NCBI GenBank assembly: GCA_030667645.1
Contig: DAOUVM010000001.1
Coordinates: 1 to 31,726, forward strand
Direction of reading: 5' to 3'
Source: Ardenticatenales bacterium
Lineage (GTDB): Bacteria; Chloroflexota; Anaerolineae; Promineifilales; UBA4811
DNA length: 31,726 nucleotides
Below the pieces are notes generated by a model that saw nothing but the letters and a program-made list of their open reading frames with translations, was not told the origin of the DNA and did not search any database. Position 1 is the first letter of the stretch, and each line of letters begins with the position of its first letter. The position numbers and the translations under genes were made by a program. This document shows, piece by piece, positions 4,828 to 23,321 of the stretch.

Positions 4828-4941
4828 ATCTCACTCGCTTGAGCGCGATTCCCCTCTCGCGCCAACGACTGCCAATACGTCCTGGTCCACGTCTCCCCGC
4901 CATGACCAGAGAGGCGAACAAGGCCCAACGGGCCTCCACAC

Positions 4942-6300: not shown

Positions 6301-6357
6301 GGTTCCTGTCTGCCGGAATGCTGACCCTCCAATCCGTGGGTGAGGGCGAGCGCGGTG

Positions 6358-6385
6358 ATTGTATCGAATCGAGGGTGAAAAGCAA
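6358..6385 (-). promoter_or_regulatory. Putative sigma70 promoter for folC-mutS
   Basis: Minus strand TTGCTT-16 bp-TACAAT, ~55 bp upstream of the folC ATG. Confidence 0.45.
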
Positions 6386-6407
6386 GGGTGACGGTGGCAC
6401 AAAGTAT

Positions 6408-6436
6408 TTGACACGCCCCTGGCGGTTTGGTACACT
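6408..6436 (+). promoter_or_regulatory. Sigma70 promoter for the Ig-repeat protein / GT2 unit
   Basis: TTGACA-17 bp-TACACT with an extended -10 TG. Confidence 0.75.
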
Positions 6437-6488
6437 GGCTCGCAATGGATGCCTGCACTCGCCGGCCGCAGATTGGTGGAGATCCCTC

Positions 6489-7802: not shown

Positions 7803-7805
7803 GCG

Positions 7806-8738
7806 ATGCTGGATCTCGCCGTCATCATTGTCTCTTGGAACGTGCGCCAGTTGCTGGAAGAGTGCCTGGCGTCGGTGTACCGGAGCCTGTCGGTTTGCAC
7901 ATCAGCAGGCAAGGGGTCCGGGCTGGCAGCTTCGGTCTGGGTAGTGGACAACGATTCGGCCGACGGCACACCGCAGATGGTGCGAGAGCTTTTCCCGCAA
8001 GCCCGATTGATGGCGAACACGGAGAACCTGGGCTTTGCCGGCGGGAATAACCAGGCCATTGAAAGCGCGCTGCCAGAGACCCCTCGCCATCTCATGCTGC
8101 TCAACCCCGACACGGTCGTCCAGGGCAGAGCATTGGAGACACTGGTCAGATTTATGGATCGCACACCCAATGCGGGTATGGCCGGGGCTCGACTGGTGGA
8201 CGGAGATGGGTCTTTTCAGCACAGCGGCTTTCGGTTTCCAGGATTGGCGCAAATCCTCTTGGACCTTTATCCTCTTCCAGCGCGCCTGCACGAGACGCGC
8301 CTGAACGGACGCTACCCAAGGCCGTGGTATGAGGCCGATGCCCCGCCGTTCCGGATCGATCACCCGCTGGGAGCTGCGGTGATGATTCGACGCGAGGCCA
8401 TAGCGACCGTGGGTCTGCTGGACACCCAGTTTTTCATGTACTGTGAAGAGATCGATTGGGCTATGCGAATCAAAGCCGCCGGCTGGGATATCTATTGCGT
8501 ACCAGCGGCCGAGATCATCCACCTGGGCGCTCAGAGCACCTCGCAGATCAAGGCCGCTTCATTCGTGAACCTGTGGCGCAGCCGCTTCCGGCTATACAGA
8601 AAACACACTTCCGGCCTTGGGATGTGCCTGGCACGTTGGCTGGTCCAGCTCGGAATGAGACTCAGAGCACGCCAGGCTGATTCGGAGACGCTGAGGTCGG
8701 CGTACCGGGAGGCAAGGGATGCATGGAGCTGCGGATGA
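7806..8738 (+). CDS. Glycosyltransferase family 2 (WbbL/rhamnosyltransferase-like)
   Basis: AVIIVSWNV, VVDNDSADGT, NLGFAGGNN, LLNPD, FFMYCEEIDW motifs. Confidence 0.93.
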   Translation: MLDLAVIIVSWNVRQLLEECLASVYRSLSVCTSAGKGSGLAASVWVVDNDSADGTPQMVRELFPQARLMANTENLGFAGGNNQAIESALPETPRHLMLLNPDTVVQGRALETLVRFMDRTPNAGMAGARLVDGDGSFQHSGFRFPGLAQILLDLYPLPARLHETRLNGRYPRPWYEADAPPFRIDHPLGAAVMIRREAIATVGLLDTQFFMYCEEIDWAMRIKAAGWDIYCVPAAEIIHLGAQSTSQIKAASFVNLWRSRFRLYRKHTSGLGMCLARWLVQLGMRLRARQADSETLRSAYREARDAWSCG

Positions 8739-9475
8739 ATGAGATTGCAGCCGTGATCCTGACGCTCAACGAGCAGAAACAGATCAAGGAGTGTATCGCA
8801 AGCGTCCGCTGGGCAGACCGCGTCGTCGTATTCGACACCTATAGCACCGACCAGACGGTCCCGCTGGCCCGCTCGGCCGGCGCAGAGGTCTTGCAGCACC
8901 GGTTCGAGAACTATGCGCAGATTCGTAACGCGGCGCTAGAGGCGGTTCAATCCGACTGGGTCTTTTTCATAGATGCGGACGAGCGCGCAACATCAGCCCT
9001 CACGGCCGAGATCCGGGAGGTGACAGCCAATCGGCCGGAGAACGGCTGGTGGGTTCCCCGTCACAATTACCTGTTCGGCAAACTCACGCTGGGTGCGGGC
9101 TGGTACCCGGACTATCAGATGCGGCTGATACGTCGTGGAAAAGGGATCTATGACCGCCCGGTGCACGAGGTAGTAATCCTGACCGGAGATGCTGGCTATC
9201 TCCAAAACCCGCTGCTTCACTTTAATTATGAAACGATAGCCGAGTTTCACGCCAAGCAGGCCCGCTACTCTGACTATGGCGCCGAGAGGTTGCACAGTGA
9301 GGGTCTACGACCGAGGGCGTACAGCCCTGCCACGCAGTTTCTCCACCATTTCTACTGGCGGTTCATCAGCCTTCACGGGTACCGGGACAGACTGCATGGG
9401 CTGCGACTCTGCCTGTTGACCGCCTGGTATGAAGCTATCACATACCAGAAACTGCGGCGACTGTGGGCAGATTGA
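8735..9475 (+). CDS. Glycosyltransferase family 2 (KdtX/WaaE-like small beta-glycosyltransferase)
   Basis: VILTLNEQ, VFDTYSTDQT, FFIDADER, YPDYQMRL, VHE motifs; ATGA overlap with the upstream stop indicates translational coupling. Confidence 0.92.
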   Translation: MNEIAAVILTLNEQKQIKECIASVRWADRVVVFDTYSTDQTVPLARSAGAEVLQHRFENYAQIRNAALEAVQSDWVFFIDADERATSALTAEIREVTANRPENGWWVPRHNYLFGKLTLGAGWYPDYQMRLIRRGKGIYDRPVHEVVILTGDAGYLQNPLLHFNYETIAEFHAKQARYSDYGAERLHSEGLRPRAYSPATQFLHHFYWRFISLHGYRDRLHGLRLCLLTAWYEAITYQKLRRLWAD

Positions 9476-9500: not shown

Positions 9501-9571
9501 GCCCTGAATTCTGACCCGCGGGCTCTCTGGTCACGAGTGCAAAGTCTGCGGTGGAAATCCGGAGTCGGAAG

Positions 9572-10075
9572 GTGAACACGCCAGTTCTGGTTCTCAACGC
9601 CAACTATGCGCCGCTAAATGTCTGCACCACCCGCCGGGCAATGGGTCTGCTGCATATGGAAAAGGCGATGATCATCTCCAACGGCCGGGGAGTGATTCGC
9701 ACGCCGACCACGACCTTTCTTCGGCCGTCTGTCATCCGACTTGGATATATGGTCAAGCGGCTGCGCCCCCGGGTGAAACTTACCAAGAGAGAGATCCTGC
9801 AGCGGGACAACCACACGTGCCAATACTGTGGTCGACAGGGTCCCGGGCTGACCATCGACCACATAGTCCCCCGGCACAGGGGCGGCGCCCAGTCATGGAC
9901 GAATCTGGTCACCGCCTGCCAGGCCTGCAATCGGAAAAAGGGCGGCCAATCAGCGCAAGATGCCCAGATGCAGCTTTGCCAGGAGCCCTCCGAACCTCCC
10001 GCTTCAGCAACCTATCTCTACCGTCGGCATCTGCAGAAAAATCAAGAGTGGCTTGTGTTTGTCGAGGGATGGTAG
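9572..10075 (+). CDS. HNH endonuclease (McrA/HNH_5-like, Zn-binding)
   Basis: N-terminal VLVLNANYAPL motif, RDNHTCQYCG, TIDHIVPRHRGG, NLVTACQACNRKKG; GTG start at 9572 after GGAG. Confidence 0.92.
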   Translation: MNTPVLVLNANYAPLNVCTTRRAMGLLHMEKAMIISNGRGVIRTPTTTFLRPSVIRLGYMVKRLRPRVKLTKREILQRDNHTCQYCGRQGPGLTIDHIVPRHRGGAQSWTNLVTACQACNRKKGGQSAQDAQMQLCQEPSEPPASATYLYRRHLQKNQEWLVFVEGW

Positions 10076-10091: not shown

Positions 10092-10565
10092 TCAGGCGCT
10101 GTTCTGGCGAGCAGCAGCCACGATTCCTGGCAACCCCTCCTCAATCTGGCGCTCCAACTCGTCGGCTGTCCGCCGATAATCGTTCAGCGAGCCGCCATAC
10201 GGGTCCCGGATGTCATAGGGTGGACCAGCCATCTCTGTCAACCGAAAGATCTTGGCGGCTGCCGACGCACACTCGGCGCGCAGCGCTTCGACGTGGCCAG
10301 CCGTCATCGTGAGCACCAGATCAACCTTTGCCAACAGGGCGGCACTCGCGTTCCGGGAACGGTGGCGGCTCATATCCAGCCCGCGCTCTCGCATCACTGC
10401 CACGCCGTTCTCGGTGGCAGGGAGGCCATCCTGAGCCCAGGTACCGGCCGAGATGATCTCCCACTCTCCGGGGATTCGCTCTTGCGCCAGCTTCTGCCGC
10501 AGGTAGACCTCGGCAATGGGTGAACGGCAGATGTTGCCGGTGCAAACAATGAGAATTGATGGCAT
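10092..10565 (-). CDS. Low-molecular-weight protein phosphatase (LMW-PTP family)
   Basis: P-loop VCTGNICRSP, SAGT, D-P-Y-G catalytic loop (DIRDPYGG). Confidence 0.93.
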   Translation of the reverse strand: MPSILIVCTGNICRSPIAEVYLRQKLAQERIPGEWEIISAGTWAQDGLPATENGVAVMRERGLDMSRHRSRNASAALLAKVDLVLTMTAGHVEALRAECASAAAKIFRLTEMAGPPYDIRDPYGGSLNDYRRTADELERQIEEGLPGIVAAARQNSA

Positions 10566-10595: not shown

Positions 10596-11711
10596 TCAAA
10601 GAGGGATCATCTCGACGAGCGCAAGCAAGCCGCCGGAAACAAGCGAGTGCCCACCCAGTACAACCGGGACAGAGGATGACAGAGCGCCGGCGGTAAACGC
10701 TCTCAGGAACGGCTCCTGGACGCGATCCACCCATCCCAGGTCAGATGCATATCGGTCTTCTGCCGAGGGCCAGAGGCCCCGATGGGCAAGTATCACGCGG
10801 TTGTCAAGAAAGATGGCGTCGGTCCACTGTTCGAGAGTGTGAAAGAAGGCATCCATGCCCACCTGCTCCAGGTATGCTCCGAGAATCGATCTGACCTGAC
10901 CGCCCGCCTGGCGTCCGCTGGCAACCATGCCCCGTTCTTCGGCAATCATGCGCACCCAACAGAGGGTCTCCCGCTCCAGGGCAGCCCACGTGCTCGATGC
11001 CACCCGGCCGCCGATCATGATGTGTTTGCCCTCAGAACGCAAGACCGCCAGCCCTTGATCCAACCGGCCAGTGTCGAGGTCCAACTCGGCCAACTTGGCC
11101 GCCAGATGTTGTCCGCATCCCGGGTGACGAGAAAGGATCATGAGGTCGGTCGGTGTGTCAATGTCCAACCGGCTGGCAGCGGAGACAGGCAGGGTGTCGG
11201 CCGGTAAACCTGCCTCTCGATGGAGCACCCAGGCAATCGCGTTGTCGCGAACCACCCGAGGGGCATACTGGGCCAGGACACTCGCGGGCGTAAAGGCAGC
11301 CCAGTCGGCGGAATGCAGGTTGTTGGTGATCAGCAATCTCTCGGCCGCCAAGGTCTCTTGCGCTATGGCCGCCAAATCGACTGAGTTCAGCAAGGGAGCT
11401 GCCCCCGCCCCCATGTAGAGAACATGTGTTAACCCATAGTGGCCGATCACACTTGCCAACCGGCGTCCGAAGTGAAAGGGATGCCGCGTGTCATCCAGGT
11501 CAACAACGCAATCAAGCGGAAGACCGCTGGCCCAGAGCGGGTCATTGGTGACGACGATGAGTTGGTCAAAGAGACCGGTGGCTTGAGAAGCCACCAAGGT
11601 GTCCAATGCGGCCGCCTGACGCGCATCCTGCATCCAGCGGCACGCCGGCTCTGGAGTAGCCACAGAGCCCACCATCACTACCAACCCCAGCTTTGTCACT
11701 GACTGCGACAT
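10596..11711 (-). CDS. Nucleotide-diphospho-sugar-transferase-fold protein (CofC/DUF2064-like N-terminal half) of unknown function
   Basis: Start at ATG 11711 after GAGGAG; FHFGRRLA, GAGAAPLL, NNLHSAD and RLDIDTPTDL resemble GT-A/CofC-type motifs; extra C-terminal ~150 aa. Confidence 0.6.
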   Translation of the reverse strand: MSQSVTKLGLVVMVGSVATPEPACRWMQDARQAAALDTLVASQATGLFDQLIVVTNDPLWASGLPLDCVVDLDDTRHPFHFGRRLASVIGHYGLTHVLYMGAGAAPLLNSVDLAAIAQETLAAERLLITNNLHSADWAAFTPASVLAQYAPRVVRDNAIAWVLHREAGLPADTLPVSAASRLDIDTPTDLMILSRHPGCGQHLAAKLAELDLDTGRLDQGLAVLRSEGKHIMIGGRVASSTWAALERETLCWVRMIAEERGMVASGRQAGGQVRSILGAYLEQVGMDAFFHTLEQWTDAIFLDNRVILAHRGLWPSAEDRYASDLGWVDRVQEPFLRAFTAGALSSSVPVVLGGHSLVSGGLLALVEMIPL

Positions 11712-11864
11712 GGGATCTCCTCGGCGCCGGTTCAAGACCTCAATGGAAGGTGAATGCCAGCAATTCAACCGCTGGCGCGACCAGAACCAGAGCGCCACCA
11801 TGCAGACCCCAGTACGCGGGGCGCATGCGTCAGAGTGCCCTGGGCCACGATTGCAGCGGCTCGA

Positions 11865-12416
11865 TCAGTCCAGCTCGGGGATGAGCAGACCGTAGCCCTT
11901 GTCGCTGCGCGAGTACAGCACGTTGATGCCATTCTCCTCCGCACTGAAAAAGACAAAGAAATCGTGCCCCAGCAGCTCCATCTGCTCAATAGCTTCTTCC
12001 TGCATCATGGGCACCACCGAAAATCGTTTGACTCGCACGATCTCGCCCGCATCTTTTTCAAGTGTGTCCTCATCAAGCGGGAGTCCCATATCTTCCGCCG
12101 TCACAGTGCGCCGTACCCGTTGCCGTTTGCCCTTGTAACGGGCGATCTGCCGATACATCTTGTCCACAACCCCGTCAATCGAGGCAAACATATCCCCGGT
12201 TCGCACTTCGGCCCGCAGGATTACCCCACGATCGCTGCGAATCGTGAATTGCGCGACCTGGCGATCAGCGGCGCTCCTGGCGTTCTCCAACGAGAGGTCC
12301 ATCCGAGCGCCGGCAACGGCGGGCAGAAAGCGGTCCAGCTTGCCAGCTTTGCGCTGCACATATTCCTCCAGCCGCTGCGTGAGCTCCATATTGCGACCCG
12401 TTATCTGTAGTTCCAT
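11865..12416 (-). CDS. hpf: Ribosome hibernation promoting factor, long form (HPF/RaiA/YvyD)
   Basis: MELQITGRNMELT, DMFASID...KMYRQI..YK, C-terminal EEAIEQMELLGHDFFVF...INVLYSRSDKGYGLL; GAGGAGG RBS. Confidence 0.96.
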   Translation of the reverse strand: MELQITGRNMELTQRLEEYVQRKAGKLDRFLPAVAGARMDLSLENARSAADRQVAQFTIRSDRGVILRAEVRTGDMFASIDGVVDKMYRQIARYKGKRQRVRRTVTAEDMGLPLDEDTLEKDAGEIVRVKRFSVVPMMQEEAIEQMELLGHDFFVFFSAEENGINVLYSRSDKGYGLLIPELD

Positions 12417-12431
12417 TGTGCCGTAACCTCC

Positions 12432-13232
12432 TCAGAAAATCGTTTGGGGAATCCGATCGCTCTGCCCGAAACCGGCATCTCCGACTGCCCCAGTGACAGG
12501 ATCCCAATTTGTCCGGGCGAGCGTAAAGGCAAATACATTGGCTGCGCCAACCCTGCGCAGAACCTCGGTGCAGGCATCCAGCGTGGAGCCGGTGGTGCAT
12601 ACATCATCCACCAAGAGCACCGAGCGCCCCTTGACCCAGGGTCCGCTCGCCGTGAACGCACCGGCAACATTCTTACGACGATCAGGCGCACTGAGGCTGG
12701 TTTGCGCCTCTGTGATCCGGGTGCGCTCAAGCCCTTGCGAAAGCACCGGAAGTTTGATTTGCGCCGCCAGTTCCCGGGCGAGGAGAGCAGCCTGGTCATA
12801 CCCACGCTCACGCAACCGCGTTGAGTGAAGCGGAACCGGCATGATACAATCCACGGGAAACGGCTCCTCGTTCCACGCCGAGACCATCAACTCGGCCAGC
12901 GGGGAGGCGAGTTCGGTCCGGCCGCCGTACTTGAACGCGTGGATCGCGCGTCTCATCGCCCCCTCGAATCCGACGGCTGCCCGCACACCATCCATTCTCA
13001 ATGGCCGGATCGAGCAAAAGGGACAAGCTGTCCGGCATGCGGCAGCATCCAGAGCCCGCCCGCACCGGAGGCAAAAGGGGGGTTCGACCCACGAGATAGA
13101 GCGGCGGCAAGCTGGACAGAGTAGAAAGTCCACACTACCACAACCCGCGCAAATCGGAGGAAAAATCAGATCGAGCGCTGCACGCCAGAAGCGAGATACC
13201 GTTGCACGCCCGCGGATGGTTGGCGCCATCAC
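12432..13232 (-). CDS. comF: ComF family competence protein (Zn-ribbon + PRTase-like domain)
   Basis: LDLIFPPICAGC, four CxxC pairs, IHAFKYGG, PVPLH..RLRERGYDQA, LLVDDVCTTGSTL. Confidence 0.94.
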   Translation of the reverse strand: MMAPTIRGRATVSRFWRAALDLIFPPICAGCGSVDFLLCPACRRSISWVEPPFCLRCGRALDAAACRTACPFCSIRPLRMDGVRAAVGFEGAMRRAIHAFKYGGRTELASPLAELMVSAWNEEPFPVDCIMPVPLHSTRLRERGYDQAALLARELAAQIKLPVLSQGLERTRITEAQTSLSAPDRRKNVAGAFTASGPWVKGRSVLLVDDVCTTGSTLDACTEVLRRVGAANVFAFTLARTNWDPVTGAVGDAGFGQSDRIPQTIF

Positions 13233-13243
13233 GCCGGGCCAGG

Positions 13244-14179
13244 CTATAGAATTCCCAGAACGCCAGACCGAAGCACCTGGAAGCCGGCCGGGCCCAAAAG
13301 CACGAGCAGCAGCGAGGGGAAGATCAGGAAGACCATCGGAACGACCATCTTGACCGGCGCCTCCTGGGCCCTCTTTTCCGCAAGCTGGCGTCGCTTGACT
13401 CGCATCTGGTCGGACTGAATTCGAAGCACCTTGGACAAGCTGACTCCCAACTGCTCTGCCTGCACCACGGCCGCAATGAAGGTCGTCACATCCGAGACTT
13501 CCAGGCGATCCGACATGGATCGTAAAGCCTCCCGCCGAATCCTACCCAATTGAACCTCCTGCAAGACTCGGCCGAACTCCCGTGACAGATCGTTGTCCCA
13601 CTTTTCAGCGACGCGCTTGAGGGCGGAATCAAAGCCAAGGCCGGCTTCGACACAGATCGTCAGCAGATCGAGGGAGTCGGGCAGGGCCCGCGTGATGTTG
13701 AGTTGACGCCGATCTATCGTGCTCCGGAGCCACATCCCGGGAAGGATAAAGCCCAACAGGGCCATTCCGGCAGCGAACATGATCCGCCGACCGGGCTGCG
13801 CCCCAAAACGCCACATCAGGAAGTAGATGAGGGCAGAGAGGCCCACGGTGGCGACAAGTCGGATGGCCCAGAATTCGGCCGCCGACAGACGGCGAGACAG
13901 ACCAGAAACCTCGAGCTTGTGAGCGGTGCTCTCTAGCGTCTTTTGGGGAGTGAAACGCACGACCAGATTGGCCAGTCCACGCATCAGCGGGACCAGGATC
14001 CGATCACTGAACGAGAGTGACAACTCTACTTCTTCGAGAGATACAGCCTCGTCGCGCGCACCGTACTCGGCCAGGCGGTCCCGCAATGGGTCACCCTCTG
14101 CTCGGCGCAGCAACACGAATCCAAAGGCAATCATGGATAGTAGAAAAACCAGCAGTCCCGCTATCACTACCGGGTTCAT
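13244..14179 (-). CDS. tadC: Tad pilus inner-membrane platform protein TadC (T2SS F family)
   Basis: LPDSLDLLTICVEAGLGFD, AEKRAQEAPVKMVVPMVFLIFP motifs; follows tadB. Confidence 0.93.
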   Translation of the reverse strand: MNPVVIAGLLVFLLSMIAFGFVLLRRAEGDPLRDRLAEYGARDEAVSLEEVELSLSFSDRILVPLMRGLANLVVRFTPQKTLESTAHKLEVSGLSRRLSAAEFWAIRLVATVGLSALIYFLMWRFGAQPGRRIMFAAGMALLGFILPGMWLRSTIDRRQLNITRALPDSLDLLTICVEAGLGFDSALKRVAEKWDNDLSREFGRVLQEVQLGRIRREALRSMSDRLEVSDVTTFIAAVVQAEQLGVSLSKVLRIQSDQMRVKRRQLAEKRAQEAPVKMVVPMVFLIFPSLLLVLLGPAGFQVLRSGVLGIL

Positions 14180-14206
14180 GCTACACCTCCCCCCCCAAAA
14201 ATACGT

Positions 14207-15199
14207 CTAAATGTCAATATCCGCCAGCTTCCGCATGGCCACAAAGCCACTGAAGATCAGAATGAGGCCAAAGCCCAAGACCAGCCACCCGCAGGGCAAT
14301 ACCCCAGGAATCACCCACGGCGGCTCTCTGTTGAAGAGCTCATTAATATAGCCAGGGTTGGATACCCTCAGAAAGAGGGTCAGCGCCACCGGGAGCCCGC
14401 TGATGACATAGCCGGACATCGTCACCTGAGCCGTCAGGGTAGCGATCTCGCCCCGAATCCGGACCCGCTCCCGTATCGTGTGGCTGATAATAGCTAGAAT
14501 CTCGGCTAGATTGCCTCCCACTTCCCGCTGGACATTGACAGCCGTGACAACCAGATCCATATCATCGCTGGGGATCCGGATCATCAGATTGTTCATCGCC
14601 TCTTCCAGAGTCATACCCAAGCGCACTTCTTGCACAACTCGTTCGAATTCAACACTCACCGGCGGGGGGGTCTCGGCCGCAATCGTCTCCATCGCCTGCA
14701 AGACACTGTAACCCGAACGAAGCGCGTTGACCCAAAGATTGAGTGTGTCGCCAAGCTGGTTGTCAAAATCCTTTAGTCGCTTTTTTGCTGCCTGTTTCAC
14801 ATAGATGCGGGGCGCCATGAAACCAGCAGCTACACCAACCAAGGTGAAAGGAATGCTCTCGCCGAACAGGAACCAACTGATTATGGCAAAACCTAACAGG
14901 GACAAAAGGCTCAGCACCAGGTATTCGCTGACCCTCAGCTTGAGGTCAGCCTGCTGCAACTGAGCCTTGATGTTCTGCGCAAAGCCACGCTCTGCTACAG
15001 TTTCTTCCAGCCGGTCGGCAAAGACGGAGGTACGTTCCGCCCGCGCCGCAGGCGCCACCGCTGCCGTTTTATCCTCGGCGATTTGGCTCAGTCTCTCATC
15101 AACCTCGGAGCTCGAGCCCGCTCGCACGGTGGCGATTATCCCACCCACGACAAGCAGGAGGGCAACCCCAGCCAGAACCAATATCAGTCCAGGAGGCAT
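14207..15199 (-). CDS. tadB: Tad pilus platform protein TadB (T2SS F family)
   Basis: FDNQLGDTLNLWVNALRSGYS, QREVGGNLAEIL, TLTAQVTMSGYVI motifs. Confidence 0.93.
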   Translation of the reverse strand: MPPGLILVLAGVALLLVVGGIIATVRAGSSSEVDERLSQIAEDKTAAVAPAARAERTSVFADRLEETVAERGFAQNIKAQLQQADLKLRVSEYLVLSLLSLLGFAIISWFLFGESIPFTLVGVAAGFMAPRIYVKQAAKKRLKDFDNQLGDTLNLWVNALRSGYSVLQAMETIAAETPPPVSVEFERVVQEVRLGMTLEEAMNNLMIRIPSDDMDLVVTAVNVQREVGGNLAEILAIISHTIRERVRIRGEIATLTAQVTMSGYVISGLPVALTLFLRVSNPGYINELFNREPPWVIPGVLPCGWLVLGFGLILIFSGFVAMRKLADIDI

Positions 15200-15217
15200 C
15201 TCACATCCCCTTGGCCA

Positions 15218-16594
15218 CTAGCGCCGTCGCTGTCCGATGCCGAAAATGGCTGGCGGCAACATGATGCCTGCGGCCTGAATCTGTCTGATGAACTTGGGCC
15301 GGATGCCGGTGGGCCGCAGCCGGCCGATGACCGTGCCGTCTTCCACACCGGTCTGCTCAAAGCCAAAAATCTCCGACATGGTGATAATGTCCCCCTCCAT
15401 ACCCTGAATTTCGGTAACACTGACCACTTTGCGCGTCCCATCGCGCATTCGATCCTGGTGAACAACCAGTTGGATGGCGGATGAAATCTGCTCCCTGATG
15501 GCGCGAATCGGCAAGTCCATGCCGGCCATCAGGACCATGGTCTCCAGGCGGGCGAGGGAATCACGCGGGCTGTTCGAATGGGCAGTGGTAAGGCTGCCAT
15601 CGTGCCCAGTATTCATCGCCTGCAGCATGTCCAGCGCCTCTGCCCCTCGGCACTCTCCAACGACAATCCGGTCTGGGCGCATTCGCAAGGTGTTGATGAC
15701 CAAGTCACGAGTCGTAATCTCGCCCCGGCCTTCGATGTTCGGTGGACGCGATTCGAGCGTGACGACATGTTCCTGGCGCAATTGGAGCTCGGCCGCGTTT
15801 TCGATGGTCACTATCCGCTCATCATTAGGGATGAACCCCGACAAGACGTTCAGCAAAGTGGTTTTTCCGGAGCCAGTACCGCCAGAGATCACAATGTTAA
15901 TACGGCCAATGACCGCCGCACGCAGAAACTCGACAGCCTCAGGCGTGATACTGCCAAAGCCAATCAGATCCTGGATCGTCAGGGGGATCTTGGAGAACTT
16001 GCGGATTGTCACCGTGGGACCCACCAGAGAGATGGGCGGAATCACCGCGTTCACACGCGAACCATCAGGCAGGCGGGCATCAACCAAGGGAGAGCTTTCG
16101 TCGATTCGCCTCCCCAGTGGAGCCACAATCCGGTCAATGATTCGCATCAAGTGATCGTCAGTCTCAAACGTGGCGTTGGTTCGTTCGATCTTGCCCTCAC
16201 GTTCAACGTAGATGTTCTTTGGGCCATTAACCATGACCTCAGTAATCGACTCGTCGGCCAGCAACGGTTCCAGGGGGCCCAATCCCAGGATTTCGGCCAC
16301 AATCTGCTCAAAGAGGCGCCGCCGCTCGCTCCGGCTGAGAACGATGTTCTCCTCCATCAAGATGGTCTCAAACATCTCCTCGATGGTGGCCCGGACCTCA
16401 CCCGTCTGAGTGATGTCCATGGCCGGGTCAAGCTCCGCAATGAGCTTTTCCTGGATACGACGTTTGAGATCTCGGTAGGCGTCACGAGAGCCGGCCATAG
16501 GGGCTTGGCGTTTGACCCGCATCTCTTGCAGCACAGATTGGCTCTCCGCCACTTCCGGGCCTTGGCCCTTCTCAAGCCGCTTTAGTAGTGACAC
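15218..16594 (-). CDS. cpaF: Tad pilus assembly ATPase CpaF/TadA
   Basis: GLGPLEPLLAD, ARLPDGSRVN, Walker A GGTGSGKTT, RMRPDRIVVGECRG, MNTGHDGS. Confidence 0.97.
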   Translation of the reverse strand: MSLLKRLEKGQGPEVAESQSVLQEMRVKRQAPMAGSRDAYRDLKRRIQEKLIAELDPAMDITQTGEVRATIEEMFETILMEENIVLSRSERRRLFEQIVAEILGLGPLEPLLADESITEVMVNGPKNIYVEREGKIERTNATFETDDHLMRIIDRIVAPLGRRIDESSPLVDARLPDGSRVNAVIPPISLVGPTVTIRKFSKIPLTIQDLIGFGSITPEAVEFLRAAVIGRINIVISGGTGSGKTTLLNVLSGFIPNDERIVTIENAAELQLRQEHVVTLESRPPNIEGRGEITTRDLVINTLRMRPDRIVVGECRGAEALDMLQAMNTGHDGSLTTAHSNSPRDSLARLETMVLMAGMDLPIRAIREQISSAIQLVVHQDRMRDGTRKVVSVTEIQGMEGDIITMSEIFGFEQTGVEDGTVIGRLRPTGIRPKFIRQIQAAGIMLPPAIFGIGQRRR

Positions 16595-16618
16595 GACATC
16601 CTCCCGCGAGACACCCGG

Positions 16619-17875
16619 CTACCGGCTGCCGAATAGGCGACTGAGACGGGAACGCCCGCCCGGCACGGCGACTGGTTCGGACGCGGGCACTCTGACCCGG
16701 TCATATATCCCACGTAACTCGTTGGCCAATTCGAATACAGCCTCAGAAACCGGCTTGCCTGGTTCGCGAAGAACAAACGGGACGCCCCGGTTGACTGAAA
16801 ACATCACCGTCCGGTCATCGGCGGGAATCGAGGCCGTCACCGCGTGCTTTATGGTGTTCTCGATGTCACTCGGGCTGATGCCCGCGTGTCTGTCCACTCG
16901 ATTCAAGACGAGCATGACCCTCCCACGCTCATAGTCCAGTTGATCAATGACCTCAAAGAACAGCCTCATGTTCTTGACGCAGGGAATGTCCGGAGTGGCA
17001 ATCAGGAGAATCTTGTCTGCCTGATCGAACACCGCCAGCATGACATCCTGCAGCGAGGTGGAGGTATCAACAATAATATAGTCGAATAGGCCACACAGAA
17101 GCGAAAGCGTCTCTTGCAGATGTTGCGCGGTGATCAGTTCGCCCATCTCTGGCCTGGGAGGGGGAAGCAGCGCTTTCAAGCCAGAATCATGGGTGGCCAG
17201 GACACTGCTGATCAGATCAGTATCCAACTCTTCAAACCGCTCAGCAATGTCCACCAGACTGTGCGTGCCGGTCAGATTGAGCAGGACCCCCATGTCGCCA
17301 AAGGAGAGGTTGGCATCAACCACAACCGTGTTCTTGCCCGCCTGAGCCAGTACGACTCCGAGGTTGGCAGCCACCACGCTGCAACCCACGCCCCCCTTGG
17401 GGCTAAAGACCGCAATGACCCTGCCTTGTCTAGGTGGAGGCGCGGCAACTGCAGCAGACTCCCCTGGGCCCGCGGGCTGGACCATCACCTTGCTGCTGCG
17501 TTCGTAGACCTGATGAATGGTGGCAATCAGCTCGTCGCTGGAGAAGGGTTTTGTGAGGAAATCGCGAGCGCCGGCTAACATGGAGCGTCGGATGTAGTCC
17601 GACTCCCCCTGAACCGACATCATGATGACCTGAGCAGTAGGCGTTTCCCGAGTGATGATTTCGCTGGCACTGATTCCGTCCAAGCCGGGCATGTTGATAT
17701 CCATCAACACAACGTGCGGACGTTTTTCTTTGGTCAGCTCGACCCCTTCCTCGCCGGTGCCAGCCTGACCCACCACCTCGATGTCGGATTCGAATTGGAT
17801 GAGCTTGCGCAGATTATCCCGTGTCTCTGGGATATCATCAACGATCAGTACCCGAATCTTTTCCGTCGATTCCAT
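16619..17875 (-). CDS. cpaE: CpaE/TadZ pilus localisation protein: N-terminal receiver domain + MinD/ParA-like domain
   Basis: REC motifs VDD...LMDINMP...MSV...FLTKP; MinD-like FSPKGGVGCS, VDANLSFGD, DYIIVDT; lies between cpaB and cpaF. Confidence 0.9.
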   Translation of the reverse strand: MESTEKIRVLIVDDIPETRDNLRKLIQFESDIEVVGQAGTGEEGVELTKEKRPHVVLMDINMPGLDGISASEIITRETPTAQVIMMSVQGESDYIRRSMLAGARDFLTKPFSSDELIATIHQVYERSSKVMVQPAGPGESAAVAAPPPRQGRVIAVFSPKGGVGCSVVAANLGVVLAQAGKNTVVVDANLSFGDMGVLLNLTGTHSLVDIAERFEELDTDLISSVLATHDSGLKALLPPPRPEMGELITAQHLQETLSLLCGLFDYIIVDTSTSLQDVMLAVFDQADKILLIATPDIPCVKNMRLFFEVIDQLDYERGRVMLVLNRVDRHAGISPSDIENTIKHAVTASIPADDRTVMFSVNRGVPFVLREPGKPVSEAVFELANELRGIYDRVRVPASEPVAVPGGRSRLSRLFGSR

Positions 17876-17930
17876 GCTTTCCCTAGATTAGATTCCGTAC
17901 CCTCTTGATGAATGTTCGCAAAGCGCGTGC

Positions 17931-19109
17931 CTACTCGCCGGTAGCGCCCTGGCGGATATAGTCTTCAATCCCATACAGGGGAGGTTCAAACCCATACTGT
18001 AACTTGGGAGGAACAACCATATTGTACGTCTCCATCAAGTACTGGAGAGTCACAGCACTTGTCTGGAACTGTGCGACCTCGCCTACCGGTCGGATCACGA
18101 AATCAATGTCCGCGTTGATCTCCCAGGCGAACTTGATCACGAGCGCTTCCTGCGGAGTAACGGCCAGCAGAATCACTCTGGGCTTGATCGGTTTCGGCGC
18201 CGGCGCCGGTGGTCCTTCTTGCTCGGCGTCCTCAGGGACAGGAGTCGGCGTTGGGGCAGCCAGAGGATTGATGCCGATTTCTTCTTCCTCTGCGGTCGGG
18301 TAGCGGCCAACACGTACTACCACCGCATCCTGCACGGTCAACTGCGTGACCAGGCGGGGACGCTGGTTCGCCTCACCAGGTATGACGTTGAAAATGAGCC
18401 CCAGTGGCCCTTCCTCGATCCTGCCAGAAGGAAACTCGGTAAGCGTCAACTCTTGTGCTCCCTCGGCCGTTTGCGATATATCCAGCACCTGGGTTCTGTT
18501 AGGCAGCTTGGTGTGGAACTCTTCATCCAGATCCACCAATGCCAGCGAAGCCATCAAGTCAATGTGATCGCCTGGACGCAGAGCGTATGCTACTGCAGCA
18601 GTTGGATCCTGATCGATGGAGGGCAGCGGAATGGCCATAAGCACCCGGCCGCTGGGAATAGCCAGCGCGGCATCACTCCCAGTCCCGGTAAGATCAATCA
18701 TGTCGATGACCATAGTGGTCAAGATGGGCTCAAACCGAACGGCGCTGGTGCGCATGCGTTGCCCGATCACCATTTCAAGGACATCCTGCACGCCAGCGGC
18801 CGCCTCCCCGGCAGGGGGGCTGACGATGGCATCGGGCGGGACCGCATCAGATGGCCAATCCCACAAGGCAATGGAATCACCGGTGATCTCCCATCCACGC
18901 GGGATGTCCTGAACCGCGATGACGATCTGGGTCATCGGCGGAACCGGAGTAGGTTCATCTTGCAGTTCGGTGAGAAGGGGAATCGAGACGGTCTCCCCGG
19001 CCTCTTGCGCTTCTCCGCCAAACAGCCCCATCTGAAAGCCGACCCATGCAATCCCGGTGACAACGATCAAAACGATACCCACTATGACGATGATTATGCC
19101 GCGCTTCAT
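17931..19109 (-). CDS. cpaB: Flp pilus assembly protein CpaB/RcpC (SAF domain)
   Basis: N-terminal TM helix, IVIAVQDIPRGWEIT SAF motif, VAYALRPGDHIDL, LLAVTPQEALVI; first gene of the tad cluster. Confidence 0.88.
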   Translation of the reverse strand: MKRGIIIVIVGIVLIVVTGIAWVGFQMGLFGGEAQEAGETVSIPLLTELQDEPTPVPPMTQIVIAVQDIPRGWEITGDSIALWDWPSDAVPPDAIVSPPAGEAAAGVQDVLEMVIGQRMRTSAVRFEPILTTMVIDMIDLTGTGSDAALAIPSGRVLMAIPLPSIDQDPTAAVAYALRPGDHIDLMASLALVDLDEEFHTKLPNRTQVLDISQTAEGAQELTLTEFPSGRIEEGPLGLIFNVIPGEANQRPRLVTQLTVQDAVVVRVGRYPTAEEEEIGINPLAAPTPTPVPEDAEQEGPPAPAPKPIKPRVILLAVTPQEALVIKFAWEINADIDFVIRPVGEVAQFQTSAVTLQYLMETYNMVVPPKLQYGFEPPLYGIEDYIRQGATGE

Positions 19110-19174
19110 GGAATCTCTCCTTTTTTAGTGGATTGATGAGACTGCGCCACGAAAGATCGCACCCGAGTATTCAG

Positions 19175-19202
19175 AGTATACTCCTCTCAATCCGTTTGTC
19201 AA
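19175..19202 (-). promoter_or_regulatory. Proximal sigma70 promoter of the tad-comF-hpf operon
   Basis: TTGACA-16 bp-TATACT, ~65 bp upstream of the cpaB ATG. Confidence 0.7.
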
Positions 19203-19481
19203 CCACAGCCGCTGCCAGAAGGTGGATTGCCGTAGTAACATCGCTTCCGACCCGGCCGGAAGCAAAGACTCGAAAGCCCCCGGCTGCTCTCCAGAATCCT
19301 TGGATGTGTTTGCCACCAAGAGACACAAGCCCATTCCATACCAATGATACACTCGACACGATCAGACGATCGATTGTACGTATCGTCCTGCCCGTTCCGT
19401 CGCAAGAAGCATGCCCGAACTCGCAATGGACCATCCCCCGAAATATGCGAATGGTTCTGTCTCAATTGGCTTGTCGATGCC

Positions 19482-19510
19482 ATTGTACAGAGGTTCCGAT
19501 AAAAAAGCAA
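19482..19510 (-). promoter_or_regulatory. Distal sigma70-like promoter upstream of the tad operon
   Basis: TTGCTT-17 bp-TACAAT on the minus strand in the 585-bp kinase-cpaB spacer. Confidence 0.55.
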
Positions 19511-19694
19511 CCGTGGTCCGCGAGAGCGTGGAAAACAGGGTGGAGGGTATGGAAGCAGGAACAAGGGCGCGTGGACGGCCCGGCCCATGCCTGCGCCTAC
19601 CGACTGGACGCTACATGAGGCCCGACAGCACCTGCCGGGTCTGTGCTTGAATTCATTCACGGCTCCGTTTCCGCGTACATCGGCCGCGCCCAAA

Positions 19695-20759
19695 TTAACC
19701 GGTGGTGGGGATGGACACAGCAACGTGCGTTCCCTGTCCCGGGTCGCTGTTAATTTCCAGCGTACCCCCCAACATTTCGATCCGCTCCTGCATGGTACTA
19801 AAGCCGACGGTCTGACGCTGGCGCGCGCTGGAAAGCGCCTCCTCTACATTGAACCCGGCGCCATTATCATCCACTGTGGCCTGAACCCAGTCATCCTCCA
19901 GCTCAATGGCGATACGCACTTGAGAGGCCTGGGCGTGGTCACGGACGTTATTGAGTAGCTCCTGAATAATGCGGAAGATGGTGACCTCAACATACGGTTC
20001 CAGTCGTTTTTCCTTGCCCACAATGGTGACTTCGGCGGGGATGTTGTTCTTGTTCTTGAAATTCTCAGCATACCGGCGCAGAGTAGGAACCAGCCCCAGG
20101 TCATCCAGCATCATCGGCCGCAACTCGAAAATAAAGTCCCTGATCCGCTGGAAGGTATCGGTGGCGGCCCCCTTGAGTCCCGCCAATTCCGCCTGCGCCT
20201 GCTCCGGATCTCCGTCAAACATTCGCTGGCAGATCTCTGTTTGGAGGATAAAGTTAGTCATGGACTGGGCTGGCCCGTCGTGCATTGCTCGCGAAAGACG
20301 GCGCCGTTCCGCTTCCAGAGCGCCCACCAGTCGCACAACAACGGGTTCCTCGCCGCCGGCCGCTTTCCCGGCCAGACCCGCGGCCGGTCCTACCGCACCA
20401 TCGGTCGCTTCCAGGAAACGACGCAGCAAAGTCATATAACGTTCCATGTTCTTCTGGTCGCTCTGGAGCTTTTCCAGTTGCCCCCGCATAGTAAACAGAC
20501 GCTGCTGCACATCATGAACAGCGTCGTAGGCTTCGCGAATGTCATCCCGCGGCACGGTTGCGAGGTTGGTCTGGATGTGACGCAAGTGATTCGTGGCTCG
20601 AGCATGGCGCCGAGCTAGTTTCTCCACCTCGCCAGTGCTCTGCTGAATCAGTACATCGATCTCCTTGAGCTGTCGCTGCACCTGATCGAATTCTTTGCGG
20701 CTGTCCTCCAGCAGCAGTTCAAGGGGAGACTCTTCACTCGTTGCGGTAGGTTTGGCCAT
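19695..20759 (-). CDS. Soluble DegS-like sensor histidine kinase (coiled coil + HisKA_3 + HATPase_c)
   Basis: No TM segment; long N-terminal coiled coil; H-box MHDGPAQSMTN, FELRPMMLDDLGL, FRIIQELLNNV..HAQAS, DDNGAGF, PGQGT. Confidence 0.9.
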   Translation of the reverse strand: MAKPTATSEESPLELLLEDSRKEFDQVQRQLKEIDVLIQQSTGEVEKLARRHARATNHLRHIQTNLATVPRDDIREAYDAVHDVQQRLFTMRGQLEKLQSDQKNMERYMTLLRRFLEATDGAVGPAAGLAGKAAGGEEPVVVRLVGALEAERRRLSRAMHDGPAQSMTNFILQTEICQRMFDGDPEQAQAELAGLKGAATDTFQRIRDFIFELRPMMLDDLGLVPTLRRYAENFKNKNNIPAEVTIVGKEKRLEPYVEVTIFRIIQELLNNVRDHAQASQVRIAIELEDDWVQATVDDNGAGFNVEEALSSARQRQTVGFSTMQERIEMLGGTLEINSDPGQGTHVAVSIPTTG

Positions 20760-20771
20760 TTTCTCCTCTGT

Positions 20772-21467
20772 TCATGAGTTCTGGGCATCCTGCAGACGGA
20801 CCCAGCCACGGCCCAATGCATAAACGGCGGCCTGAGTCCTGTCGCTCACATCAAGCTTGCGGAGGACCGACGTCATGTGGTTTTTTACCGTTTGGTGACT
20901 GATGCCGAGTTGATAGGCAATCTCCTTGTTACTGAGACCCTTGGTCACGAGCTTGAGGACCTCCATTTCGCGGGGAGACAGAGGCATGAACACGTCTTCC
21001 ATGTCCAGACCCGCGGCGCCGGCCTTGGCAGCCACCTCACCATCCAACCAAAGAGCGACCCCTGACTCGGTCAAGATGTCGTCATCTATCACATAGAATC
21101 CCTTGATGGCCGTATGGATGGTCTCCACCAGTCGATCCGGCATGATATCCTTGGGGCAGTACGCGGAAGCTCCCGCACGGATGGCGTGAAACACCTGCTC
21201 TACATTGTCATAGCCAGTGAGCATGATCACCTTGATGTCGCGCTGTTCCGCCTTGATCTGGCCGGTGACCTGCAACCCATTCATAGTGGGGAGATTGATG
21301 TCCATGATGACCACATCGGGGCAGAGCGTGCGGGACAATTGCAAGGCTACCTCGCCATCGGCCGCCTCGCCAACGACCTCAAAATCGGCCTCCGTCTCAA
21401 GGATATCTCTGACTCCCTGACGGAACACCGGATGATCGTCAACAACTAGGACACGTATTGGCTTCAT
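20772..21467 (-). CDS. NarL/FixJ-family response regulator (DegU-like)
   Basis: REC VVDDHP...MDINLP, LuxR HTH LSPREMEVL...GLSNKEIA..LGISHQTVKNHMTSVLRKL. Confidence 0.95.
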   Translation of the reverse strand: MKPIRVLVVDDHPVFRQGVRDILETEADFEVVGEAADGEVALQLSRTLCPDVVIMDINLPTMNGLQVTGQIKAEQRDIKVIMLTGYDNVEQVFHAIRAGASAYCPKDIMPDRLVETIHTAIKGFYVIDDDILTESGVALWLDGEVAAKAGAAGLDMEDVFMPLSPREMEVLKLVTKGLSNKEIAYQLGISHQTVKNHMTSVLRKLDVSDRTQAAVYALGRGWVRLQDAQNS

Positions 21468-21527: not shown

Positions 21528-21557
21528 AGTATATCACAAAAGGAGGCCAGCGGGCAA
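21528..21557 (-). promoter_or_regulatory. Sigma70 promoter of the two-component pair
   Basis: TTGCCC-18 bp-TATACT with extended -10 TG; AGGAGG RBS before ATG 21467. Confidence 0.6.
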
Positions 21558-21684: not shown

Positions 21685-23265
21685 TCACGGCCTGTCTGAG
21701 GAGGGCAGCCGGTAAACTGAACAGTTGTTCAACCCCTCCGCCCGCGTCCAGTGCGAGCCCGTGCTGTAGAGAAACCGCACTCTGGGATGCCGGGTCACAA
21801 ATTCATAGGGCCAGCCCGGCGCGGTGACCAGGTAGCGTGCCGGACTCGCAAGGATGAATTCGGCCAACTCGCTTTCCGCGGCGATCACCGGGACCACCTC
21901 TGGGGAAACAAGTCCCGCCAGATCCAGGATGGGCCGATGCGCAAAGTACCCAATGGCGCCGATGTCATGCGCTGCGATCCATTCATCAGGCTCAGTGTGC
22001 TCGAACAGCCACTGCGCGACGGTCACCATCTCGCTCTGGATGATCTGCACGTCTTTGGCATAGGCCCGGGCGCCCACGGCGAGAAATGCCAGCGTGAGAA
22101 TCCCTGTCGCCAGCAACCAGCTTCGGCCGATGACCCGCCGCCAGAAGGTAGGATGACGCCGCCGCAGCCAGTGCAGGGATCCGGGCACTCCATACAGGAT
22201 GATAGCGGGAATGATGGGGAAGAGGTAGCGGCCGTGCTGATAGGTGACGGGGAGACGGAGAGCGTAGAGAAGCAGGTGGGCGGCAGAGTACAAGAGAAGA
22301 ATCAGGTGACCGGGAAAGCACGGGATGGAGGGAAGAGACGAGGGTGATAGGCAACGCCTGCTGATCTTCCAGATACTCACAAGCAAGCCCGGAACGAGCA
22401 AGAGCTGAAAGCCAGTGAACGGGGGCAGCACGACGCGCGCCAGACGCAACAGAAACGGAACGGCCAGTTGGGCCGCGTATTCGGCTTGTTTGGCATACAG
22501 CGTATTGGGCCACAGCCGGCCGCTAAGTTGGAGATTGAGGAGCACGTAAGGCGTCATCAGCAAGGTCAGGGGAACCAACGCCGCGCCGGCGGCACGGAGG
22601 GCATGGCGCAGCGTCCAGCAGCCACGGATGACCAGCCATCCCCCCCAGAGCACGACGAGTCCCACCAAGATAATCCCCTCCGGCCGGGTGAGAACCAGCA
22701 ATCCACCAAGAAGACCAATGACAGCCCAGGTCCGGACGACAGGATGGACGCAATCTCTTGGCACATCTGCACCCGTGAAGATCGGCGGGAGGCGGTCGAC
22801 AAGGGCGAGAGAGAGGGCCACGTAAAGGATGGTCTCCATCCCGCTGACAGATGCCCAGACCAGATGCCATTCGCCGACACACAGAAAGCCCACGACCGGA
22901 GCAATCCAACGCTCATCGGGAAAGAGGCGAGCGCTCACCCGGTGTGCCAGCCACCCGGTGAGCGCCAGGCAGACGACTCCCATTCCCCAGGCCCACCAAT
23001 CGTACGGGAGGCGAAACAGATATCCAACTGCCAGCACCAAAGTCCACAACGGCGCAGTAGATCCCGCGCTCGCCTGCCCCGGTGTGAACTCGAACCGGCC
23101 GGTCAGCGCCAGACTGCGGGCATATGTCTGATGAATCCAGGCATCATCCAGCGGAAAACCGGAATCGCCCAAGAGGGCAACCGCAATCAAGTATGCAGCC
23201 GCCCACCCGGCCGCCAAGGCCAGGTAGATGGGCAACCAACGCCGCTCCTCAGTCAGCCAACGCAT
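21685..23265 (-). CDS. Polytopic GT-C-fold glycosyltransferase-like membrane protein (ArnT/PMT-like)
   Basis: First-loop acidic motif FPLDDAWIHQTYAR, GSTAPLW, SGMET, LTRPEG, HDIGAIGY, many TM helices; start reassigned to ATG 23265. Confidence 0.82.
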   Translation of the reverse strand: MRWLTEERRWLPIYLALAAGWAAAYLIAVALLGDSGFPLDDAWIHQTYARSLALTGRFEFTPGQASAGSTAPLWTLVLAVGYLFRLPYDWWAWGMGVVCLALTGWLAHRVSARLFPDERWIAPVVGFLCVGEWHLVWASVSGMETILYVALSLALVDRLPPIFTGADVPRDCVHPVVRTWAVIGLLGGLLVLTRPEGIILVGLVVLWGGWLVIRGCWTLRHALRAAGAALVPLTLLMTPYVLLNLQLSGRLWPNTLYAKQAEYAAQLAVPFLLRLARVVLPPFTGFQLLLVPGLLVSIWKISRRCLSPSSLPSIPCFPGHLILLLYSAAHLLLYALRLPVTYQHGRYLFPIIPAIILYGVPGSLHWLRRRHPTFWRRVIGRSWLLATGILTLAFLAVGARAYAKDVQIIQSEMVTVAQWLFEHTEPDEWIAAHDIGAIGYFAHRPILDLAGLVSPEVVPVIAAESELAEFILASPARYLVTAPGWPYEFVTRHPRVRFLYSTGSHWTRAEGLNNCSVYRLPSSDRP

Positions 23266-23321
23266 TCGAATCCACCCGACGTTGACCGATCCCATTCATG
23301 GCATGGTAATCCCGGGCCCAT

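Follow-up and report, generated by a model that had tools for sequence, protein, structure and literature searches.

Why should the genes of a pilus run on into a DNA-uptake gene and a ribosome-hibernation gene, behind a pair of regulators that resembles DegS and DegU? The question is raised by a block of genes on a 31,726-nucleotide contig (C173; "the window" denotes this whole stretch) of an Ardenticatenales bacterium, a metagenome-assembled genome (MAG) of 2.32 Mb in 309 contigs that is 78% complete. On the minus strand, from 21467 down to 11865, the block reads regulator, kinase, spacer, cpaB, tadZ, cpaF, tadB, tadC, comF, hpf. We found its tad-comF-hpf part to be conserved across Chloroflexota, and the comparisons suggest that the block is an inherited module of the phylum, organized as two transcription units. 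In a search of our genome collection, the nearest relatives of its CpaF protein (75% identity) came from Promineifilaceae and Ardenticatenaceae MAGs, which belong to the class Ardenticatenia by NCBI names and to Anaerolineae in a GTDB-style grouping, within the phylum Chloroflexota. An earlier note, written from the letters of the DNA alone, had described the block as a Bacillus-like locus with all genes on one strand and gaps of 55, 24, 18, 27, 11 and 15 bp from cpaB through hpf, and these values agree exactly with the coordinates of the open reading frames (ORFs). Pfam and NCBIfam scans over the ORF list assigned the window's protein domains, and the features of the block, in amino acids (aa) where they encode proteins, are as follows.

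21528..21557, minus strand: promoter-like site upstream of the regulator (TTGCCC-18-TATACT with TG; 9/12 consensus matches)
20772..21467, minus strand: NarL/LuxR-type response regulator of DegU-like architecture, 231 aa (Response_reg 106 bits, GerE 82 bits)
19695..20759, minus strand: predicted soluble DegS-type histidine kinase, 354 aa (PF05384 46.6 bits, HisKA_3, HATPase_c)
19110..19694, minus strand: spacer of 585 bp between the kinase gene and cpaB, with no plausible ORF
19175..19202, minus strand: sigma-70-type near-consensus promoter (TTGACA-16-TATACT, 11/12 matches), about 66 nt before the cpaB start codon
17931..19109, minus strand: CpaB/RcpC-like pilus assembly protein with an N-terminal membrane anchor, 392 aa (weak RcpC, SAF)
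16619..17875, minus strand: TadZ/CpaE, a receiver fused to a ParA/MinD-type ATPase, 418 aa (Response_reg 103 bits)
15218..16594, minus strand: CpaF/TadA pilus motor ATPase, 458 aa (T2SSE 212 bits)
14207..15199, minus strand: TadB platform protein, 330 aa (T2SSF, PF00482, 80.7 bits)
13244..14179, minus strand: TadC platform protein, 311 aa (T2SSF, PF00482, 66.7 bits)
12432..13232, minus strand: ComF (ComFC/GntX family), 266 aa (DZR_2 39 bits, Pribosyltran 37.5 bits)
11865..12416, minus strand: long-form HPF, 183 aa (PF02482 82 bits, PF16321 81.5 bits)

Is the order of these genes peculiar to one genome? We surveyed 80 loci anchored on CpaF, taken from the genome collection with 10-kb flanks, and counted the Chloroflexota loci (Thermomicrobiota included) that had the order cpaF-tadB-tadC and sequence downstream of tadC (n = 27). 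A comF gene was located near tadC in 26 of the 27, within 700 bp in 21 of them and at 0.7-8 kb in five, and hpf stood immediately behind comF in 20 of the 21 closely spaced loci. The tad-comF-hpf linkage proposed in the earlier note is thus conserved. The one locus in which comF was not found belongs to a Dehalococcoidia MAG, and among the CpaF-anchored loci of other groups comF was found downstream of tadC in none of 15 from Bacillota and none of 14 from other phyla. The linked loci cover six NCBI classes (Ardenticatenia, Anaerolineae, Caldilineae, Thermoflexia, Limnocylindria and Chloroflexia); tadC and comF are typically 5-80 bp apart in those from Anaerolineae and 350-550 bp apart in the rest. 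The flanking genes vary outside the window's own class, so the conserved part is the core block, whose gene content, gene order, domain homologies and neighbourhood are matters of direct observation.

The CpaF of the window shares 62-76% identity with other Chloroflexota CpaF proteins and falls within their clade. In a quick maximum-likelihood tree, all comF-linked Chloroflexota CpaFs form one clade (SH-aLRT 96), and because they do, the tad-comF arrangement fits a single origin followed by long retention. A second survey, anchored on ComF and comprising 60 loci from about 48 families of Chloroflexota, found Tad genes directly ahead of comF in 9 families, and in another 2 families at a distance of 1.5-2.5 kb. 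In five loci (L091, L103, L110, L111, L119) tad and comF have stayed together although comF and hpf have parted. Several variants of the operon were also seen: two genomes of one family (f28; L104 and L142) carry a second cpaF between comF and hpf (tadC ... comF-cpaF2-hpf), and in L091 the operon contains two cpaF genes in tandem. One 3-kb contig that had been assigned to Solirubrobacterales (Actinomycetota; L010) is nested in the Anaerolineae CpaF clade beside L137, a placement that is probably a binning error.

What, then, is the pair of regulators at the head of the block? The kinase has no membrane segment, and its DegS domain, which covers positions 22-124 of the 159 in the PF05384 profile and clears the cut-off of 27.6 bits, is followed by HisKA_3 and HATPase_c. 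When 23 Chloroflexota tad-linked kinases were compared with 8 Firmicutes DegS proteins in hhalign, the N-terminal domains matched with 97.6% probability (E 4.5e-12) over 107 collinear columns that share a motif, and on the strength of that alignment we take the sensor domain to be of the DegS type. No more than one kinase in the genome has such an N-terminus. The regulator, encoded 12 bp from the kinase gene, has the expected residues (DD, D56 and K106) and groups inside a clade of tad-linked Chloroflexota regulators, apart from the other NarL-type regulators of the genome (SH-aLRT 98). In several Limnocylindria-type and other non-Anaerolineae loci (L030, L031, L110, L111, L133) the regulator is flanked by two kinases, the upstream one being a further HisKA_3 kinase that belongs to a different clade and the downstream one the DegS-like kinase, after which come 3-5 tandem flp genes.

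The same pairing recurs in a second phylum. In five named Firmicutes loci, kinases adjoining a Tad operon have a full DegS domain (133-182 bits); in Pelotomaculum propionicicum, for example, the order is DegS, DegU, TadE, TadG, CpaB, receiver-TadZ, CpaF, TadB, TadC. We examined 60 loci anchored on DegS within the GTDB phylum of Pelotomaculum, where DegS occurs in 91 of 151 genomes. A Tad operon was present on the same strand in 30 of these 60 loci (27 at 1-4 kb after degU, three just before degS), so the link between a DegS/DegU-type pair and a Tad operon that the earlier note had read from the window holds beyond Chloroflexota. Among 20 extended DegSU-Tad loci, seven had ComFA-ComFC 1-4.3 kb past tadC on the same strand, and in 7 of the 60 comF came after degU without Tad. 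Mesobacillus campisalis shows DegS, DegU, DegV, ComFA, ComFC and HPF in an uninterrupted series. Each of the pairs regulator-Tad, Tad-ComF, regulator-ComF and ComF-HPF thus recurs, and Chloroflexota hold all of them at once. Like the window, the Clostridia-type Firmicutes loci have a kinase and a LuxR-type regulator adjoining CpaB, receiver-TadZ, CpaF, TadB and TadC on one strand; they differ in that the kinase comes first, in that TadE, TadG and pilins stand between the regulator and cpaB, and in that they have ComFA and lack an adjacent hpf.

A further connection between kinase and pilus emerged from the CpaF-anchored loci: a receiver-bearing TadZ accompanied the DegS-like kinase in all 15 loci that have one, and no such kinase was seen in any of the 21 loci whose TadZ lacks a receiver. 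Related genomes are not independent observations in these counts, and some of the loci are cut short. In the window, the TadZ receiver retains all of its phosphorylation residues (DD, the acceptor Asp in MDINMP, and Lys), as does that of Pelotomaculum, and the ATPase part matches ParA, AAA_31 and CbiA. The family evidence for CpaB is weak (RcpC and SAF fall under their Pfam cut-offs, and TIGR03177, at 49.6 bits, under its own); the protein shares 25-38% identity with the CpaBs of syntenic loci.

Could this pilus take up DNA? The genome encodes two T2SSE-family ATPases, one in the window and one on contig C296, both of the CpaF type, and searches of the genome found no PilB, PilT or ComGA; near-complete relatives show the same pattern. 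The CpaF-type ATPases are thus, as judged by family membership, the only type IV filament motors here, and since no other motor was found, DNA uptake by a type IV filament, if it occurs, would have to use the Tad pilus. The C296 ATPase is a paralogue (53% identity) within a second Tad-like cluster of the same genome (G000, about 4745-8870, minus strand), in which platform-like genes precede cpaF; no DegS-like kinase or comF lies alongside, and three other loci (L038, L049, L062) share this alternative order. Two Flp pilin genes lie outside the window, on C299 (1695-1838, next to glgC) and C15 (9512-9649), both encoding 48-aa proteins with the motif GQGLVEYALIL, and a Peptidase_A24 gene on C45 supplies a prepilin peptidase.

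Nearly all relatives carry 1-5 flp pilin genes at the position of the 585-bp spacer. In the window the spacer contains no flp remnant and no Rfam match, and it resembles none of the other loci or contigs. The region upstream of cpaB (19110-19360) has two 10-mers in common with each of the upstream regions of the dispersed flp genes: CGGGTCGGAA and ACCTTCTGGC with that on C15, and TGGCGCAGTC and ACGGCAATCC (reverse strand) with that on C299. We considered these as a possible regulator box and rejected them as too weak, since about 5% of random 250-bp segments match equally well; the shared upstream motifs that the earlier note had envisaged for the pilin genes therefore amount to a hint at most.

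The downstream end of the block supplies the other half of the question. Both domains of ComF, a double zinc ribbon and a phosphoribosyltransferase-like domain, score above their Pfam cut-offs, and its best NCBIfam matches fall under theirs (TIGR00201 comF, 108 vs 233.55; GntX NF008616, 125 vs 304). A sequence search of solved structures returned a single, weak match for ComF, to a ribose-phosphate pyrophosphokinase. HPF has both S30AE domains (Ribosomal_S30AE and Ribosom_S30AE_C) and a TIGR00741 match above cut-off, and is thus of the long form; ComF and HPF are each encoded once in the genome. ComFC is required for DNA transport (PMC9005727). As to the rest of an uptake set, other contigs encode ComEC and DprA, ComEA was found in 18 of 21 relatives, including one of the same genus, and a search for ComFA returned no orthologue, just a 21%-identical helicase fragment. 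Of the comEA, comEC and dprA genes named in the earlier note, the last two were accordingly found in the genome itself and the first only in relatives.

How are the genes likely to be transcribed? We scanned 11.5 kb for consensus promoters and compared the matches with those in shuffled sequence. The highest match was TTGACA-16-TATACT (19202-19175), upstream of cpaB; in total, promoter-like sites were no more numerous than in the shuffles. Given the 585-bp ORF-free gap and this near-consensus promoter, the regulator pair is probably a transcription unit of its own, apart from the pilus-comF-hpf run, and the earlier idea of a single operon that includes the pair was overstated. Between cpaB and hpf, promoter- and terminator-like matches were no commoner than in shuffled sequence, and none stands out. 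The comF start lies 11 bp behind the tadC stop with no Shine-Dalgarno sequence there, and hpf has a GGAGG 9 nt ahead of its ATG, abutting the comF stop codon.

Among sequencing runs, the window's DNA was matched by one sediment DNA run, which contains most of the stretch, and by no RNA run. A relative's locus was found in RNA libraries, that of an Ardenticatenaceae MAG from activated sludge (L016), which is present in four metatranscriptome runs of one wastewater study. Its contigs span the kinase 3' end to flp, tadZ-cpaF, tadB-tadC and tadC-comF; the last runs from 13212 to 13620, with tadC ending at 13362 and comF starting at 13437. These bridging contigs are compatible with co-transcription, with the proviso that RNA libraries can hold DNA and that a contig does not equal a transcript. 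They agree, as far as comF is concerned, with the earlier suggestion of co-transcription with the pilus genes. The L016 contigs covering hpf were considered as transcript ends and rejected: three runs share both ends (14125-14130 and 14681), which look to us like breaks in the assembly. In this interval (14125-14681) hpf may still have a transcript start of its own, within the 3' end of comF. Contig depths of the L016 runs were not used for ranking genes.

The window can be set beside several known systems. In Bacillus subtilis the order is degS-degU-degV-comFA-comFB-comFC ... hpf (yvyD), with flagellar genes between comFC and hpf. Like Bacillus, the window has a DegS-type soluble kinase and a NarL-type regulator, then comF, then hpf, on one strand; unlike it, the window has regulator and kinase reversed, a Tad operon in the place of degV-comFA-comFB, no ComFA and no flagellar genes. 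The earlier description of Tad as standing "in place of the flagellar genes" consequently needs amending, because the Tad genes lie between the regulator pair and comF, in the degV-comFA-comFB slot. Among Proteobacteria, PprA-PprB of Pseudomonas aeruginosa, for example, is a two-component system that controls Flp/Tad pili through a membrane-sensor kinase of another kinase family. What it has in common with the window is a dedicated two-component system beside or acting on the tad locus; unlike the window, it is not known to have a DegS domain or a link to comF.

Closest in gene content is the Anaerolineales Tad cluster of Xia et al. (2016, PMC4877987), with the same core genes, order and phylum. 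That cluster, flp/pilA-cpaB-cpaE-cpaF-tadB-tadC, was transcribed in digester metatranscriptomes (PMC4877987). Its description ends at tadC, leaving the kinase and regulator upstream and comF-hpf downstream unmentioned, and the window, unlike it, has no local flp gene. Functionally, the nearest precedents are Micrococcus luteus (PMC4322843), Liberibacter crescens (PMC8513845) and Bifidobacterium (PMC13660472), in which transformation needs Tad pili. These bacteria resemble the present case in having Tad as the sole type IV filament together with ComEC, DprA and ComEA (the last, here, in relatives). Their function is known from mutants, and the papers, as far as they were searched, describe no com gene inside the tad operon; in the window, which is known from genes alone, comF lies inside or next to it.

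From these observations we tentatively favour, at slightly below an even chance, a reading in which the DegS-family two-component system controls the Tad operon, ComF is co-produced with the pilus on account of Tad being the DNA-uptake filament, and hpf is an older neighbour with starvation-type expression. The first unit would comprise the soluble kinase and the NarL/LuxR-type regulator; the second would run from the strong promoter before cpaB through the Tad/Flp core (CpaB, receiver-TadZ, CpaF, TadB and TadC) into comF and hpf. The kinase would phosphorylate the regulator, which would then switch both the promoter of cpaB and the flp genes scattered elsewhere in the genome, and the kinase may also phosphorylate the intact TadZ receiver and so control the machine directly. 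ComF and the pilus motor would be produced together, the Tad pilus would capture DNA, and import would proceed by ComEA, ComEC, ComF and DprA. The association of hpf, as an older comF neighbour, would probably reflect a common starvation or stationary-phase expression programme and not a mechanistic role. Regulation, co-transcription in this organism, DNA uptake and a coupling to hibernation are all inferred from gene neighbourhood only.

Several observations weigh against this reading. The kinase-core and regulator trees leave their deep branches unresolved and place neither protein with Firmicutes DegS or DegU; with such backbones, orthology with DegS and DegU is neither shown nor rejected, and the DegS/DegU likeness that the earlier note had seen stands for the N-terminal domain (Pfam and hhalign) and not for the trees. 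The regulator precedes the kinase, the reverse of degS-degU, as the same note had cautioned, and does so in all Anaerolineae loci examined. The pair lies 585 bp from cpaB, with the operon behind a separate promoter. The locus lacks the flp gene that its relatives have before cpaB, and Anaerolineae clusters without a preceding pilin gene were untranscribed in Xia et al. (PMC4877987). TadE/TadG pseudopilins (PF07811) were not found, and searches for ComEA with HHH_3 and TIGR00426 matched only a 733-aa Tex-like frame, negatives from a 78%-complete genome that do not amount to absence. The L016 contig over two genes is no proof of a single transcript, as its RNA libraries may contain DNA. Finally, about 36 of the 48 sampled families have comF without an adjoining Tad, often still followed by hpf, and the tad-comF adjacency could persist by descent alone.

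The last point leads to the strongest competitor, which we hold to be quite possible if less probable: the order has been kept by descent and does not reflect a shared function, the Tad pilus is used for adhesion, aggregation or surface motility, and comF-hpf is an old housekeeping pair that lies downstream by chance, expressed either by read-through or from a transcript of its own. Nearly all genomes of the phylum carry ComF (273 of 301 Chloroflexota sampled), and with so many families lacking an adjoining Tad, ComF evidently does not depend on it. Many Chloroflexota families, and one Bacillaceae genome, have comF next to hpf with no Tad operon there, bearing out the caveat that this adjacency is common, and the single CpaF clade means that one ancestral juxtaposition would suffice. 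The distance between tadC and comF reaches 0.35-7 kb in some lineages, and the literature assigns adhesion or motility to the pili of Anaerolineae and Chloroflexales (PMC4877987, PMC7332563). Inheritance without function is harder to reconcile with an adjacency that lasts over six classes while the flanks, and even the comF-hpf link, change, and with the short gaps typical of Anaerolineae. Nor can inheritance within one phylum account for Tad followed by comFA-comFC in 7 of 20 Firmicutes DegSU-Tad loci, and the genome has kept ComEC, DprA and ComF yet has no other type IV filament for uptake.

It is improbable, in our judgement, that the pair acts more generally, as a NarL-type system directed at targets such as the upstream membrane glycosyltransferase or cell-envelope genes, and that its DegS-like N-terminus is a generic coiled coil: its own promoter and distance from cpaB, the partial DegS match with weak coiled-coil matches to crescentin and SMC, the trees and a conserved GT-C-like gene directly upstream in Anaerolineae would suit that explanation, but the profile-profile alignment is collinear with a common motif, pairs of the same architecture adjoin Tad operons in two phyla (including half of the DegS-anchored Firmicutes loci), the kinase was seen only where TadZ bears a receiver, and in relatives the pair ends just ahead of the flp genes.

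The surroundings of the block were also inspected. Directly upstream of the regulator, a gene for a 536-aa polytopic membrane protein (21685-23295, minus strand) is kept in many Anaerolineae loci; the protein has no Pfam match, a language-model search led to PMT_2/GT-C glycosyltransferases, and it could be a pilin or envelope glycosyltransferase. On the 3' side of hpf, the same strand encodes a 401-aa protein (10596-11801) whose family is unassigned, with a weak CofC/DUF2064-like lead, followed by a low-molecular-weight phosphotyrosine phosphatase (10092-10565, minus strand). The 401-aa gene is likewise found behind hpf or comF in L003, L029, L125 and L129, and the phosphatase gene also trails the block in L003, L016, L029 and L086. 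Past the phosphatase gene, an HNH endonuclease ORF on the plus strand (9551-10075) marks the end of the co-directional run. Rfam (at the gathering threshold) and tRNA scans of the window detected no non-coding RNA.

What is new here can be delimited. The Anaerolineales Tad core has been published (PMC4877987), without the regulator pair or comF-hpf, as has Tad-dependent transformation in Actinomycetota and Liberibacter. Our literature search found no paper on the tad-comF or DegSU-Tad linkage, the Firmicutes loci included, and what the present analysis adds is the cross-phylum adjacency counts. Overall, we regard the proposal as a well-supported comparative-genomics hypothesis, no part of it demonstrated. 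A bolder extension, which we consider rather unlikely, is that DegS/DegU, Tad and ComF (with HPF) formed an ancestral block of monoderm Terrabacteria, in which a DegS-type kinase first controlled, and perhaps sensed through the TadZ receiver, a Tad competence pilus. Chloroflexota would then have kept the block whole and many Clostridia-type Firmicutes its DegSU-Tad part (some with ComFA-ComFC), and the degSU-degV-comF...hpf order of Bacillus would be a remnant left after the loss of Tad.

If the favoured reading is true, Tad-dependent transformation, so far known from a few Actinomycetota and one alphaproteobacterium, would gain a third phylum. Its reach would extend to Chloroflexota, a large, mostly uncultured and environmentally dominant group, in which comF at the end of the tad operon would offer a genetic handle. 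The presence of DegS-type pairs beside Tad operons with receiver-TadZ in two phyla suggests, moreover, that DegS-DegU began as a controller of a surface appendage, which, if true, would account for the so far unexplained degSU-comF-hpf neighbourhood of Bacillus.

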